Below are positions 12,001 to 27,000 of a DNA stretch of 64,000 bases, one piece after another (the stretch's first letter is position 1; each line of letters begins with the position of its first letter). Source of the stretch: an uncultured bacterium (lineage in GTDB: Bacteria > Babelota > Babeliae > Babelales > Vermiphilaceae); assembly GCA_963702025.1 (NCBI GenBank), contig OY969699.1, forward strand, positions 128,001 through 192,000, given 5' to 3'. The position numbers are program-made.

Positions 12001-15000
12001 TCGTTATAGGCAGGAATTACTATGCAAACTTTCATATAAACTCATTCCTTTTTGGCATTACTTTCTTTTTTTATTCAATCCAATCTTTATTTTGATAAAA
12101 AAATGAGTAATATTAACGCAAACTCGAGCTAAAAAACTAGAGATACAATTGAAAGGCTGCTCGTGGTGAGTGATTGCGAAGCAATCGTATCGAACCATGC
12201 GGCCTAAAAATCATAAGATATTATGAATTACTTTTATATATTTTAAAAGGATGCCCTTATTAAAAATGATTGAAACCCTCTGATAAGCCCGCATGGTTCG
12301 ATACGCAGCCTGCGGCTGCACTCACCACGAGCGGGCTTTATGATTAACTTTCACAATTCTTAGCTCGAATTAGAGTAATATGAATATACTTAATTTAAAA
12401 GATCATGATACAAATAACCTCAAGAGAAATCCTTTTCGCTCTTCTCAAAAAGCATCTTCCAGAAGATCCCATAATTATTGAAGCGGGTTCATTCAATGGT
12501 AAAGATACCCTGCGCTTGGCCGCTTTTTGGCCCACATCAATAATTCACGCATTCGAACCGGTGCCAGAAATCTTTGATGAATTGGTGCGCACTACCCGTT
12601 TAAATAACAATATCATTAGATATCCGGTAGCACTCAGTGATACAAATGGTGAAAAAGCCTTTTTTGTTGCAGAACATCCCAAAAGACCGGGAAAAATATG
12701 CCAGGCAGGGAGTCTACTCAAACCAAAAGATCGATTAAACGTTTCGCCTATAACTTATCCCAAAACCATGCTAGTAAAAACATTAACTCTTGATACCTGG
12801 GCTAAGCAGTATGGAGTTGATCATGTCGATTTTATCTGGCTCGATTTACAAGGGCATGAATTGGCAGTTTTGAAAAACGGACATCATACTTTATCAACAA
12901 CAAAAGCTCTCTATCTTGAAGTGAATTTTATTGAAGCCTATGAAAATCAAACAAATTATCTTCAATGTACTGATTGGTTATATCAAAACAACTTTATTCC
13001 CGTTGCAAAAGATTTCATCGATGAAAACAAGTGGTTTTTTGGCAATATTTTATGGATAAATACTCAACTTCTGTACAAATGAAGCACCCAACCGCTCAAA
13101 AGCAGTTGTATCGCATTGGTATTCCGCAAAGAAAAAAAGCTTCATTCCTTATCGCCGTTCGTTTCCCAGCCTTCGCTAATTCCGTTCGTGCTGACCTCTC
13201 GACTACGCTCAAGACTAAAGGCCCTTAGCTTCCTGTGCCCGGCGTCCTTCGACAAGCTCAGGATGAGCGGAAGGATGCGTTTACTCCCGAGTGAAAGTCG
13301 AGGGACTTGGCGAAGACGGGTCGAAGGATCGAAACGAGCAATAATAATTTTCGGATAAGTTTTTCCTGCCAGAACGTGCATAAATACACGAAAAAACTCA
13401 TTTTTTTGTTTTTTTTGTTGCATCCATTATCCAAAATCTTGTATATACATAGTATCTGAAATTTTGTATATACATTTTATATGATTAATTTTTAAAAAAA
13501 GAATGGTAATGGATCAACAAAATGAATAAAAACATAAACGATAGGAGCCACACACACACACACACACACAAAGGCTTTTTCAATGTCCCATAATCTCTAT
13601 AAACACTATAATACCACTTGTTTTGATATTATCTGCGACCAACAACTACTACTACTCATTAATTATTTTTCTAACCTCATAAAAAAGGATTGTATATGAA
13701 TATACAATGTAGGTTTTTAATAAAACCTTTTTCTCTTTCGCTGTTATTGATTGCATCAAGTTATGCCGATGAAATTGATTTACGTGCAGTAGATCAATTT
13801 AGAAAGTGCCAGAAGGATAACTGTTCAAGAGTTGCACTAAGCGCTCAGCTCACGTTTGGTAGTAATTATCCTTCAGCACAAACCTTTCCATCTATTTCAG
13901 CAACCGGAGACCAAGTATATGTGGTATATAATAATAATGGACTTTATACCCCTACATTACTTGCTGCACAACTATTTGATAATGTTAACGGACAATTAGT
14001 TTCTGCGCAAACACTCCTGTGTGACCCAAACTATCCCAATCCATGGATGGGGTTCGCATCAGCAGATTTTAGCCTATTTTCTGTCCTTGATGGTAGTCTC
14101 GGGACAACATCGCTTCCGGCACGAATTCGTATTCTTGATTCAAACTTTAATCAAGTAGGTCAACGGATTTTTTCATCTTATCAAGGCGACTTTTTGGGTG
14201 TGAATCCTGCTGGTGGATTTTTTGCGGGTGGATCATTTTCAGAAGATAACCATTATGTTGTGATATCTACCAGTATTTCTAATACGCCTCCAAACGCACA
14301 AAGTATGTTAGTGGTAATGGATGCTACTAATCCTTCACTTCCCACTGTAGCGCAAACTGTAATCACCGGATTTCCAGTTTTTTTCGGCCCATATCTGTTT
14401 ACTCTGACTGATAACAATGGCAATAAGAATCTGTATATTCAATATACTGTCTCCAATGGGACACCCACGCGAAATTTTATCCTATTCAATTTTTATGAAC
14501 CACCCTTTTATAGCCAAGTGTATCAAGTTAATCTGACTGCGGGCACCATTACTTTAGTTGCTCAACAGCCATTGCCTAAATTTGCTGGACCCGCTGTCCA
14601 AGTACGCGCTGGCGGCAAAGACGCACTCATTTGCCATGGCGGGTACTGCGCCCTAAACCCGAGTGCACCATCTTTTTATGCTAATCCTATTCCTTTTCAA
14701 GAATCAGTTTTACCCGGTGATTACGCCGAATCACGCGTATTTCTCTTTAATGGCACTGCCTTAAACTTAGTGGTTAAGGAAGCGGTAAATTGCTGTAATC
14801 GAACTCTCCCTTATCCCCCAAGCAATGGCTGCTCATATCTGATTGGGCAAAATCAAGATCTTCTAGTAGCGGGTTTCCCAAATGTAACCTCAGATAATCA
14901 GGAATTTTGGTGCTTTGCTGATCTTCGCCAAGGTCCAAATGGGCTTGAGTTCCGAGGAGTTAATTTGCCTAACCAAGATATGATAACCGCCATTTCAGTA

Positions 15001-24000: not shown

Positions 24001-27000
24001 GGAACTTGCCGATAGTCAAGTTCAATTACGCTCATATTTTAATGAACATATTTACTGTCCTGATCATGTTAATGATATTTCAAAACCGGATCCAACACTC
24101 TATCTGCATGCAGCGCAACAGTTAGAGGTAAATCCCGCACAGTGCATTGCTATCGAAGATTCAGCGGCAGGTATACAAGCAGCGAAAAAAGCCGGCATGT
24201 ATTGCATCGGCATTAATACCGCACAGAATCGTATGAATCTTGCGGATGCCGATGAAATTGTTGAAAATTATGCGGAGATACATTTACAGAAGTTTTTAAT
24301 TTGAAGACAGCTTCTAATACTTCCAGAAATAAAAAAAATTTATTGTATGCTAATCATATTGTTGATTCTTACGAGCAAATAAGTATGCAAAACCACTCTG
24401 AAATTAATTTTTTCGATTTATGGATTGACATTATGAGAAAATCATAGTTATAGCAAACTTCTTTAAATAACAAACAGATATGCTAAGATTTCTTCAAACT
24501 TAAGGAGAAAGTATGGCACTTGGCATAGATTTAAGAAAACGAGTAATAGCTGCAGTAGATGATGGAATGCGTATAACTGATGTGGCTAAATTATTCAAAG
24601 TTGGGCGAAACGCAATTTATAACTGGCTTAAGTTGCGCCAAGAAGTGAATAGCCTTGCGCCAAAATCCGGCTATCAGAATGGACACAGTCATAAAATTAC
24701 TGATTGGGAAAAATTTAAAGAATTTGCAAAAGAAAACCAACATTTTACTTCATTAAAAATGGCGATTGAGTGGGAAAAAATTACAAATGTTTGCATATCG
24801 GATATCACGATACAACGAGCACTTAAAAAAATTGGTTACACATCAAAAAAAAACTTTTGGTTACATCGAAGCGAATGCAGATAAACGCAAACAATTTTTA
24901 GAAGAAATAGAAAATATCGATCCTGCGCTCATTGTCTATTCTGATGAAACGGGAATCGACGATAATGAAGTGCCAAATGCTGGCTGGGCGCCAGAGGGCG
25001 AGCGATGCCACGCAATAAAAAAAGCTGAGAGAATAACGCGCTATAATATCACCGCTGCGCTGAATTTAAATTTATTATTTGCGCCATTTTTATTTGAAGG
25101 ATATTCAACTGCTGATACTTATGAAACTTACGTGGAACAAGTTTTAGCTCCTGCATTAAAGCCTGGAATGGTTGTTGTAATCGATAATGCCAGCTTCCAC
25201 AAATCTAAAAAAGTAGTTGAACTCATTGAAGCAGTTGGTTGTAGAATCATTTTTTTACCACCATATTCTCCAGATTTTAACCCAATAGAACATCGATGGG
25301 CTACTGTCAAAAATGCGATTCGAAAGGCCGCAGAGGGAATAAAAGATTTTTATGAGGCCGCAGTCAAAACATTGGGAGAAATGTGTGAGGCCTAGTGAAG
25401 CTCGCTATAGGTTAATTTTATAAATTTAATAAAGGAGTTGCAACGTGAAAAAAATAATGATATCACTCACTCACTAGTGGTATCCTTTCTGATTGTTTTT
25501 CTTTCTTTGTGTTCACATCTGCATTCAAAAATAATGATTTTATAAATCCAACAAACAACTAATAACTATTTAAATAACAATAACCCTTTTTTAAAGGAGA
25601 GGTATGCTAAAAATACCAATACCAAAAAAAATATGCCTTAGCTTGGCGCTTTTGCTTTCAAGCGCTTTAGCTCTGGCCGATTATTGTCCGGATTACGAGT
25701 GCTGCGCACCAGACGAAATTCAATGCCCGAGCAACATTGTTCACCCCAAAACATTTTTCAGTCCACGCCAAATCACCTTTGATGCAACATACGAGCTTGC
25801 GCTTACCAACTATGATGTTTACCATCCCTTAGATTGTGGTGAATGCGGTTATGGATTGCATCTTTATGCAACGCCTTTTTATGAGCAATCAAAAAAATCA
25901 TGTCGCCTTGCTCGTTATTTCTTGCCGGATGGCAAATGCGCAATTAACGTGAAACAAGATGGCACCGGTGACGTTGATCCATTATGGCTCGGTTTGGTGG
26001 GAGTTCCGGGAAGTCCGTACAGTTCAATTTTTGGTCTAAAGCCACAACGCAAAGCATACGGCGCTGTTTTTAATGCACGTATTGATTTAGGCGCTTGGTC
26101 GGATTGCCTGTGCAATTATTGGATTTGGATCAATACTGCAGTTGTGCAGGCCAAACACAATATGCATGTGTGTGAAGTTCCGGCAACCCAAGATACGTGT
26201 GTTGCTGGTGCTGACATGTGTACGGCACTTAATAACCCTTCCTGGACCGCAGGAAAAATTGCTTGTGAATCAAGAAAAAGAACGGGCCTTGACGATATAC
26301 AAATAAAACTTGGTTACGATTGGTATTATTGCGGATGCGATCAAGATAGCCACATTGCTCCCTACCTTATTGGCGGAATTCCGACCGGAAAACGACCAAA
26401 ATCAGAATATTTATTTGAACCGTTAGTTGGCAGCAAGCATGGTAGCTTTGGCGCCGGTCTGAATGCTGACGCAAACATTTGGGCATGCAATGATGCATCA
26501 ATTGTTTGGATGATGGATTTTAAATATCGGTATATTTTCAAAGCCCGTGAACGGCGCTCATTTGATCTATGCGCCAATGGAGATTGGTCACGGTATTTAT
26601 TGCTGGCAAGTAGCACCGATCCAATAACACCGATTCCGGCGATTAATATTCTCACTACTGAGGTGCATGTTACGCCACGCAGCGAAGTAAACTTCTGGAC
26701 CGCGTTACATTACGCATACTGCAATTATGGCTTTGAATTTGGCTACAATCTCTGGTACCGTCAACGTGAAAAAGTACGATTAGATGTCCCTCCTGCAATT
26801 GCCAATCTGGGAATTTATGATCTTGCCGGTGCAGCAGTACTTAATCCCGTTTCAGCAAGCACGGCAAATATTTCCCAATCAATCGGTGGCAGCAATCCGG
26901 TGGTCAGCGATCCAACGTTTGTAACACTTACTCTGGCAAATCTCAATCTGGAATCCGCGGAACATCCCCGCGCGGTAACGCACAAAGTTTATGCGGGCGG

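Follow-up and report, generated by a model that had tools for sequence, protein, structure and literature searches.

How does a host-dependent bacterium profit from making riboflavin if it encodes no known enzyme that converts the vitamin into FMN or FAD? This question is raised by a locus in the window, a 64,000-nt stretch of the genome of an uncultured member of the Vermiphilaceae (Babelota). A preliminary description had read the locus as a horizontal acquisition that provisions an amoebal host. Genome surveys hold, in the parts of their text available, that the phylum makes no cofactors (PMC4776705, PMC4378268).

The window encodes an intact riboflavin operon

The riboflavin genes and the HAD phosphatase gene that follows them form an intact operon on the forward strand, with a gene order (ribD-ribE-ribBA-ribH) of the Bacillus type. 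Its features, together with those of an upstream tandem duplication and of an insertion element, are as follows:

13133-16923, +: duplication unit 1, comprising intergenic DNA, a 486-aa gene, a 282-aa barrel-like gene and the 5' part of ribD
13690-15150, +: 486-aa protein with a leader and no family assignment; 65% identity to its own copy
15208-16056, +: 282-aa outer-membrane beta-barrel-like protein, copy 1 (PF13505, below cut-off)
16273-17019, +: truncated ribD copy, ~217 codons identical to ribD up to the breakpoint, then read-through to a stop
16924-20701, +: duplication unit 2, ending within intact ribD
17475-18932, +: 485-aa protein with a leader and no family assignment (Atlas matches all < 0.9)
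18986-19834, +: 282-aa barrel-like protein, copy 2
20051-21193, +: ribD, deaminase/reductase, intact (TIGR00326, 322 bits; cut-off 156)
21174-21815, +: ribE, riboflavin synthase, intact, two lumazine-binding domains (NF006767, 228; cut-off 155)
21899-23098, +: ribBA, DHBP synthase/GTP cyclohydrolase II, intact (TIGR00506, 242; cut-off 177; TIGR00505, 234; cut-off 206)
23107-23634, +: ribH, lumazine synthase, intact (TIGR00114, 193; cut-off 85; also RibH alignments)
23645-24304, +: HAD-IA phosphatase, reaching no specific family
24449-25415, +: IS630 element, between the HAD gene and a barrel gene

All four Rib enzymes exceed curated cut-offs, which bears out the completeness claimed earlier: GTP cyclohydrolase II and DHBP synthase are present, as are RibD, lumazine synthase and riboflavin synthase, the activities that define the bacterial pathway (reviewed, in the portion available, in PMC12542839). 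RibBA can be aligned over its full length to the solved RibBA 4i14, and zwf and gnd of the same genome could supply ribulose 5-phosphate. No FMN riboswitch was found in positions 10000-30000, and scans for promoters and terminators did no better than chance. The HAD-IA phosphatase, which has a paralogue in the same genome (contig 638756-639448), is a candidate for dephosphorylating the ribityl-pyrimidine phosphate of the pathway, a step that the available part of the review credits to unidentified or non-specific phosphatases (PMC12542839). A HAD gene lies next to five of the six complete Babelota operons; the family is also common among relatives outside the rib-positive set.

The two duplication units are 89.8% identical over 3,796 nt. 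The tandem duplication and second, cut ribD described previously are indeed present, with a breakpoint at 16923; the figure of about 90% averages over a mosaic in which the flanks are 100% identical and a single gene has diverged (that of the 486/485-aa protein, 65%). Relatives of the 282-aa barrel-like protein adjoin a lone ribH-like gene in genome G188 and a GMC oxidoreductase gene in G112. IS630, taken earlier for the boundary of the cluster, is a late insertion: four further copies in the genome are 99.8-100% identical, and the element breaks a rib-HAD-barrel-GMC order that continues past it and is shared with G233, which lacks the element. Contigs assembled from four DNA sequencing runs, one of which may come from the source sample, match the sequence in pieces.

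GMC oxidoreductase genes lie near all six complete Babelota rib operons

Beyond the insertion element, the window carries three GMC genes and two barrel-like genes:

25604-27130, +: 508-aa leader-bearing protein of no known family, with a C-terminal Phe and a weak Atlas lead; probable outer-membrane barrel
27149-29479, +: GMC oxidoreductase 1, with hydrophobic leader, FAD-binding motif and His/Asn pair
29612-31921, +: GMC oxidoreductase 2, 80% identical to GMC 1
32066-33607, +: second copy of the 508-aa barrel-like gene, 94% identical
33653-35980, +: GMC oxidoreductase 3, 77% identical to GMC 1

The assignment follows from an N-terminal FAD-binding motif, both Pfam GMC domains and a C-terminal His with an Asn/His partner; the proteins fall below every named NCBIfam cut-off. 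Among solved structures they match HMF oxidase and choline dehydrogenase best (E 3e-44 each), both of which act on primary alcohols; a single-sequence structure model (mean pLDDT 32) was left out of the evidence. As stated previously, the genome's flavoproteins include these three GMCs and two proteins of the thioredoxin-reductase type. By a crude measure, 834 of the 1,261 ORFs in the genome have a hydrophobic leader; for a relative, a leader in 44% of genes has been published (PMC6561590). Twin-arginine export of GMC 1 was rejected because TatC is absent, as it is from all six genomes with a complete rib operon. The 508-aa barrel-like gene adjoins GMC genes in G233 and G198 as well.

A complete operon occurs in six Babelota genomes: this one (G000), G233, G194, G252, G198 and G121. 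Six relatives with ribE had been counted before, five of which stand; the sixth, G207, was dropped as probable contamination because its 2.5-kb contig bears an archaeal-type gene set (GTP cyclohydrolase III and a stand-alone RibB). In six of six, a leader-bearing GMC gene lies 0.2-3.5 kb from the rib genes (3,515 bp in G000, 2,286 in G233, 924 in G194, 872 in G252, 232 in G198 and 176 in G121), and all six belong to the 32 of 261 genomes that have GMC genes. Among control rib loci from outside the phylum, whose flanks are uneven, a GMC gene occurs in 1 of 47 loci of at least 9 kb and in 1 of 108 overall. The six genomes represent about three lineages; taken as three draws, co-occurrence alone has p about 0.002, and if the operon arose once, the pattern may go back to a single ancient event.

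The nine whole rib-adjacent GMCs require six label changes on a tree of 48 proteins and therefore do not reflect one inherited gene pair; they fall in different subfamilies with about 25% identity. Between G194 and G252, GMC and rib genes are diverged to a similar degree (70-83%), and GMC genes flank the operon on both sides in G121 and G198. In G194 the operon-adjacent GMC gene is in pieces and the rib genes are whole. The GMCs do not need the operon, since ribE is missing from 26 of the 32 GMC-positive genomes; the congeners G247, G251, G255 and G122 keep the same GMC site with no rib genes there, and G033, which has no rib genes, encodes a GMC 72% identical to that of the window. GMC genes have further recurrent neighbors (zwf in two genomes and, in three families, a PEP-synthase-like gene), so some of this neighborhood is plain synteny. 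The rib-GMC linkage, a new result whose GMC genes in the window (27149-35980) lie just beyond the region described previously, points to use of riboflavin by the bacterium itself.

A recent acquisition of the operon is not supported

Three gene arrangements exist among the six operons, which have been split, inverted and fused between lineages (G198 and G121 have a RibE-RibD fusion); gene order in G233 matches that of the window. In the G194/G252 pair, dN/dS of the rib genes is 0.09-0.16. GTP cyclohydrolase II is found in 14 of 261 genomes: the six operons, the GMC-positive G112, where ribBA is cut and which was found afterwards by this enzyme, stand-alone genes in G119 and G120, and five weak matches. 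Lone, degenerate ribH-like genes persist in G185, G188 and G122. Neither composition nor codon use is atypical (score percentiles 0.26-0.99; GC 0.39-0.40 versus 0.392), and no mobile element borders the locus. RibBA identity to the 28 named genomes found does not exceed 53%, and the data do not reject a single Babelota origin (p-AU 0.55, with biased outgroups). Fourteen RibE relatives at 67-80% carry no taxon, and the closest RibE clade was not among the matches listed in a metagenome scan. Because codon use and the HAD paralogue are native, IS630 is late and one origin is not rejected, a recent horizontal gain finds no support.

No recognizable FAD synthetase in this genome, and almost no flavokinase across the phylum

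Profile searches of this genome returned 0 matches for TIGR00083 at E<=10, for flavokinase PF01687, for PF06574, for PF01982 and, at E<=1, for PF01467. Unfiltered HMMs for both halves of RibF reached best E values of 2.2 and 4 over 26,338 six-frame segments. Neither PF01467 nor a pair of unfiltered local profiles detected an HxGH-type adenylyltransferase in the genome, and PF01507 gave only two sub-cut-off matches, in one locus centered on an ORF of a tRNA methyltransferase family and another centered on that of ATP synthase alpha. A complete de novo FMN/FAD pathway thus lacks both its kinase and its FMN adenylyltransferase in these searches. One reading frame is continuous across the contig junction, in agreement with the earlier claim of a gene joined in frame across the contig ends.

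The gap proves wider than first claimed. Flavokinase matches occur in 1 of 261 genomes of the phylum versus 24 of 27 outside genomes whose RibBA is similar, and RibF is found in none of the six genomes with a complete operon. We judge the lone match (G153, E 2.9e-4, just above the Pfam cut-off) to be spurious, as it aligns to profile positions 2-62 of 124 and lies within a 626-aa protein that carries an RXYLT1_C domain. FAD_syn matches are weak in 39 of 261 genomes (three above cut-off, best E 9e-7) and fall in no rib-positive genome; the two examined are PfkB-cytidylyltransferase fusions, one best matching HldE. Other PF01467 proteins are present in four of the five rib-positive relatives, for which the test of adenylyltransferase absence is weaker. 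Leader-bearing NadD-like proteins lie in or beside the rib/GMC loci of G121, G198 and G122. The modeled fold of the G121 protein matches NadD better (Z 17.8, rmsd 3.1, 173 aligned) than it does FAD synthetase (Z 9.7, rmsd 3.7, 147 aligned), and its family, below all named cut-offs and absent from the window's genome, is also closer to NadD, which weakens its candidacy as a secreted FAD synthetase.

Absence of RibF is the normal state of the phylum, as in Rickettsia. Since no known enzyme for the conversion of riboflavin to FMN or FAD is encoded, flavin most likely passes through the host.

How the bacterium may use its riboflavin

Our preferred reading, to which we assign a probability of roughly 45%, is that the operon is a working riboflavin pathway of a host-dependent bacterium, kept to raise the FAD available to the GMC flavoenzymes that it exports, while the host carries out both activating steps. 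GTP would enter through the three TLC-family nucleotide transporters of the genome, the HAD enzyme would strip phosphate from the pyrimidine intermediate, and riboflavin would be exported to host riboflavin kinase and FAD synthetase. GMC proteins would leave unfolded by Sec and take up FAD in the periplasm or in a host compartment, and FAD could re-enter the bacterium to serve its cytoplasmic flavoproteins, thioredoxin reductase included; in the text available, RibF-less Rickettsia is inferred to import FMN and FAD (PMC5615194). The host may gain flavin as a by-product, the selected benefit being the bacterium's. No flavin transporter, PnuC-type or other, was found in the genome, which has four EamA-like genes of unassigned substrate. 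A mitochondrial-carrier search matched in no control and carries no weight on flavin transport. An orphan membrane protein considered for this role, tied mainly to uppS, has no Pfam, NCBIfam or PDB match and is unproven.

Nutritional provisioning, by a strain that is moving towards mutualism and makes riboflavin mainly to supply a protist host devoid of it, appears unlikely. The empty profile searches do uphold the earlier statement that no known enzyme of the bacterium activates riboflavin, the lack of an FMN riboswitch would fit unregulated output, and a beetle symbiont that makes riboflavin without the FMN and FAD steps is read as provisioning in the available text (PMC11191362). However, practically every genome of the phylum lacks RibF, which makes its absence uninformative about host benefit or a step towards mutualism; the three nucleotide transporters have been kept, and the 6/6 linkage is left unexplained.

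Somewhat harder to sustain is old synteny alone, with rib and GMC genes as ancestral neighbors that have no functional tie and riboflavin meeting general flavin needs via the host. The single origin permitted by RibBA, the apparent remnants (ribH-like genes in three genomes, cut ribBA in G112) and the other recurrent GMC neighbors suit this idea, but adjacency has persisted through operon rearrangement, differing flanks and distant GMC subfamilies.

We give still less credence to the idea that riboflavin or a ribityl intermediate is itself a GMC substrate or redox partner. Rib, HAD and GMC genes would then form a kinase-free biosynthetic unit, in which exported GMCs oxidize the free 5'-hydroxyl to an aldehyde or acid, the modified flavin manipulates the host, and the bacterium's own FMN and FAD come from the host. 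Phosphorylation would block that hydroxyl, so no kinase would be wanted, which covers both the linkage and the missing enzyme; the best solved relatives are primary-alcohol oxidases whose His/Asn pair aligns, and the two-sided GMC genes of G121 and G198 resemble a biosynthetic cluster. Against this, the linked GMCs are not one subfamily, close relatives occur without rib genes (G033), and no GMC acting on riboflavin was among the literature matches listed. Self-activation by an unrecognized orphan kinase, or by HAD as phosphotransferase, plus a non-orthologous adenylyltransferase is equally improbable: orphan small-molecule kinases (two APH, APH_6_hur, one CPT-like), the operon-adjacent HAD and the NadD-like proteins speak for it, but two new enzymes would be required, this genome has no detectable HxGH-type adenylyltransferase, the G121 protein models closer to NadD, and the HAD family is common outside the rib-positive set.

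If exported GMC oxidases are the reason for the operon, their linkage offers a testable explanation of why a parasite makes a vitamin without activating it. Contrary to the published surveys, six Babelota genomes encode a vitamin pathway in full, with purifying selection on it where measurable (G194/G252). The linkage also cautions against taking vitamin genes in intracellular bacteria as mutualism, and it sharpens the question of how bacteria without RibF come by their FMN and FAD and how flavoenzymes exported through Sec are loaded. Searches of the literature, mostly open-access main texts, found no report of riboflavin or GMC genes in the phylum, which supplementary pathway tables may list, or of rib genes without ribF in amoebal symbionts.

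Comparison with known systems

The window operon encodes the same four enzymes as other bacterial ribD-ribE-ribBA-ribH operons, in the same order as outside loci (e.g. L057, L159), but has no FMN riboswitch, no RibF in its genome and a tie to GMC genes. Its GMCs share the FAD-binding motif, both GMC domains and the His/Asn pair with HMF oxidase and choline oxidase-type enzymes (6f97, 9lq0, 2jbv), from which they differ in their 770-aa length, long insertions and hydrophobic leader.

Wolbachia keeps ribF. The Wolbachia of bedbugs is likewise intracellular with a riboflavin pathway, according to the available portions of papers that cite it (PMC5615194, PMC5392233); there a host benefit is reported. 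Rickettsia (PMC5615194) and Parcubacteria (PMC4508563), as described in the text available, resemble Babelota in having flavoproteins, no RibF and no identified transporter, but also lack riboflavin synthesis, which is complete in six Babelota genomes. A precedent for synthesis without activation is the beetle symbiont Candidatus Dasytiphilus, which, as far as the available text goes, has the riboflavin pathway but relies on others for the absent FMN and FAD steps (PMC11191362). Dasytiphilus is an insect nutritional symbiont, whereas Babelota are a lineage of protist parasites that lack the kinase across the phylum and have the pathway tied to exported flavoenzymes.

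The riboflavin operon and its precursors

Five genes of the window, all on one strand and spaced by small gaps or overlaps, make up a riboflavin block.

20051-21193, plus strand, ribD
21174-21815, plus strand, ribE
21899-23098, plus strand, ribBA (aligns over its full length with a solved enzyme)
23107-23634, plus strand, ribH (aligns over its full length with solved enzymes)
23645-24304, plus strand, HAD-IA phosphatase, the last gene of the block

The products of ribD, ribE, ribBA and ribH each pass a curated NCBIfam cut-off; the gene set named in the preliminary description is real. 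As zwf and gnd, both over cut-off, are encoded in the same genome, ribulose 5-phosphate is available, and GTP could enter through the three TLC-family transporters found there. An Rfam search of positions 10000-30000 returned no FMN riboswitch.

Known flavin-activating enzymes are missing from nearly the whole phylum

The same description held that the genome has neither riboflavin kinase nor FAD synthetase, and our searches bear this gap out. The bifunctional enzyme RibF (TIGR00083) gave zero matches at E<=10. When profiles of the two RibF halves (built from 19 of 25 loci of outside genomes) were run without filtering against all six frames, the contig junction among them, the best E values were 2.2 and 4; archaeal riboflavin kinase, HxGH-type adenylyltransferases and FAD-synthesising enzymes of the PAPS-reductase type were likewise not found in this genome. 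RibF is also absent from all five relatives that carry a rib operon (0/5). Across the phylum, the flavokinase domain appears in one of 261 genomes, as a half-length match inside an unrelated protein, whereas it is present in 24 of the 27 outside genomes whose RibBA is similar (10 of 14 search controls were positive). This contrast indicates that the gap is the normal state of the phylum.

Distribution of the operon and its linkage to GMC oxidoreductases

Riboflavin synthase was detected in 7 of the 261 genomes. One of these, G207, was dropped from the count, its gene lying on a 2.5-kb contig that carries GTP cyclohydrolase III; this contig (L016, G207:C110) looks foreign for its bin and holds an archaeal-type riboflavin cluster. 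Another foreign-looking contig (L315, G120:C4) carries a fusion in which a kinase-like region is followed by GTP cyclohydrolase II. The rib operons fall into three arrangements.

Arrangements of the rib genes, with the distance from rib block to GMC gene
ribD-E-BA-H-HAD-barrel-GMC: the window's genome, G000 (3,515 bp), and G233 (2,286 bp)
ribD-E-BA-H with divergent HAD-IIA and GMC: G194 (924 bp) and G252 (872 bp)
RibE-RibD fusion, ribBA-ribH on the opposite strand, flanking GMCs: G198 (232 bp) and G121 (176 bp)

Between G194 and G252 the rib genes show a dN/dS of 0.09-0.16, at a dS close to saturation. GMC genes, which encode FAD oxidoreductases, occur in 32 of 261 genomes; among 47 outside rib loci of at least 9 kb, just one has a GMC gene. 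Adjacency by chance would be expected in roughly 1-3% per genome, or ~5e-6 taking one genome per arrangement, a figure that overstates the linkage because kin genomes are not independent. Nine whole GMC proteins are rib-adjacent, and on a quickly built 48-protein GMC tree these nine need six label changes, so that different GMC subfamilies fill the position. Counting against a strict tie are 26 GMC-positive genomes without ribE, the G194 rib-adjacent GMC, which is in pieces, and further genes that recur next to GMCs.

The FAD-binding motif could be located by pattern in 45 of the 48 GMCs, and a hydrophobic leader precedes it in all 45, although such leaders are frequent across Babelota, as PMC6561590 also states. 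With TatC absent from all six rib operon genomes, the GMCs would be exported unfolded by Sec and would bind FAD only after export.

One GMC from a different family of the order (L120:4865-7147, G033) is 72% identical to GMC 1 of the window (most others reach only ~25%), which, on sequence, suggests transfer inside the phylum. A barrel-like family of 490-630 aa has seven members in the window's genome, including 25604-27130 and 32066-33607; members stand upstream of GMC genes in G000 and G233 and downstream of one in G198.

The tandem duplication 5' of the operon

The tandem duplication reported earlier (13133-16923 and 16924-20701) was confirmed as real; it left a second ribD copy cut after ~217 codons. 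Identity between the units is uneven, as in a mosaic. It is 95-100% for the flanks, the barrel gene and the duplicated part of ribD, but the 486/485-aa gene that lies between these has only 65% protein identity between copies (dN/dS ~0.58), its divergence stopping sharply where the gene begins and ends. Exact matches to both versions were found among short contigs of one DNA sequencing run, X1. The mosaic could have arisen by allele exchange or by conversion of the flanking DNA. Nearby, a minus-strand tandem array (6326-11197) of five barrel-like family genes of 270-310 aa is related to the two barrel-like copies in the duplication. Intergenic repeats at 12108-12384 and 13156-13334 have many diverged copies genome-wide, and the first, with inverted ends, may be a miniature mobile element.

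Origin of the operon

A recent horizontal gain, as had been proposed, does not hold: GC content and codon use of the rib region are typical for the genome, and the HAD gene has a paralogue in the same genome, with relatives at 10 of 30 loci of the family that were inspected on account of a different gene. The IS630 element has four near-identical copies elsewhere and breaks up an order that G233 keeps uninterrupted. The best named RibBA outside the phylum is 53% identical. In RibBA trees, the Babelota sequences form three pairs; their single origin was not rejected (p-AU 0.55; 28 rows, 22 of them selected from 50 outside sequences). Three points weigh on the other side: the outgroup sampling was biased towards relatives of the window's genes; 14 unnamed RibE proteins at 67-80% identity carry no taxon; and within genus g44 the operon is seen in G252 alone, at a GMC site common to three congeners, which fits insertion as well as loss. 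The operon has likely long been resident in Babelota.

Lone lumazine-synthase-like genes with hydrophobic leaders (L053:1438-1929, G188; L054:1462-1992, G185; L319:1372-1902, G122) occur in genomes without ribE, and in G185 and G188 another residue replaces the conserved IERAG-motif Arg. These genes could be remnants, and so could a cut ribBA seen in G112; the products of the lone genes are possibly exported flavin-binding proteins.

Proposed routes from riboflavin to FAD

From the Rib enzymes, the absent activation genes and the GMC linkage, we infer a flavin supply that the host completes for the bacterium's own use, and we favour this reading with a probability of about 0.45. The bacterium would make and release riboflavin, host kinase and FAD synthetase would activate it, and FAD would load the exported GMCs and also come back to serve flavoproteins of the cytoplasm, among them the two proteins of thioredoxin-reductase type. 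Mutualistic provisioning of the host with riboflavin appears unlikely, and an old rib-GMC synteny devoid of function slightly more so. The His/Asn pair is conserved in the window's GMC, whose closest solved structures are HMF oxidase and choline dehydrogenase; that riboflavin itself is the GMC substrate is more doubtful again. Equally doubtful is activation by unrecognised enzymes, for which NadD-like proteins adjoining rib or GMC loci in G121, G198 and G122 offer a lead, but these resemble NadD when modelled and are absent from the window's genome. The proteins in question are leader-bearing adenylyltransferases (L021:11386-12021, L020:6283-7092 and L113:5833-6441, respectively), and a protein search with the G121 type found 9 homologues only.

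As regards the transport that host-completed supply would entail, an orphan membrane protein of ~220 aa (G000:C1:639567-640238, L344; L319:1985-2638) might act as a flavin transporter, though it is a weak candidate. It is found in 69 of 80 family genomes, adjoins uppS in 29 of 30 loci, and matches 731 cluster representatives, with zero matches in Pfam, NCBIfam and PDB. The HAD paralogue or its relatives adjoin it in 10 of 30 family loci, as does the lone ribH-like gene in G122. Separately, ten relatives (L239-L246, L251, L252) encode short cytidylyltransferase-like proteins that bear hydrophobic leaders, none of which occurs in the window's genome; by eye, we take them to resemble eukaryotic choline/ethanolamine-phosphate cytidylyltransferases, and they are possibly exported, altering host lipids.

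Relation to known systems

Published statements (PMC4776705, PMC4378268) hold that the phylum makes no cofactors, and a complete vitamin pathway in Babelota runs counter to them. Within a literature scope that left out most subscription papers and supplements, no earlier report of such a pathway or of the rib-GMC linkage was found. The rib pathway itself is ordinary, and synthesis without RibF already has precedent: Dasytiphilus, a beetle symbiont, is reported to make riboflavin without activating it (PMC11191362). The activation steps are also missing in Parcubacteria (PMC4508563) and in Rickettsia, for which import of FMN and FAD has been proposed (PMC5615194).
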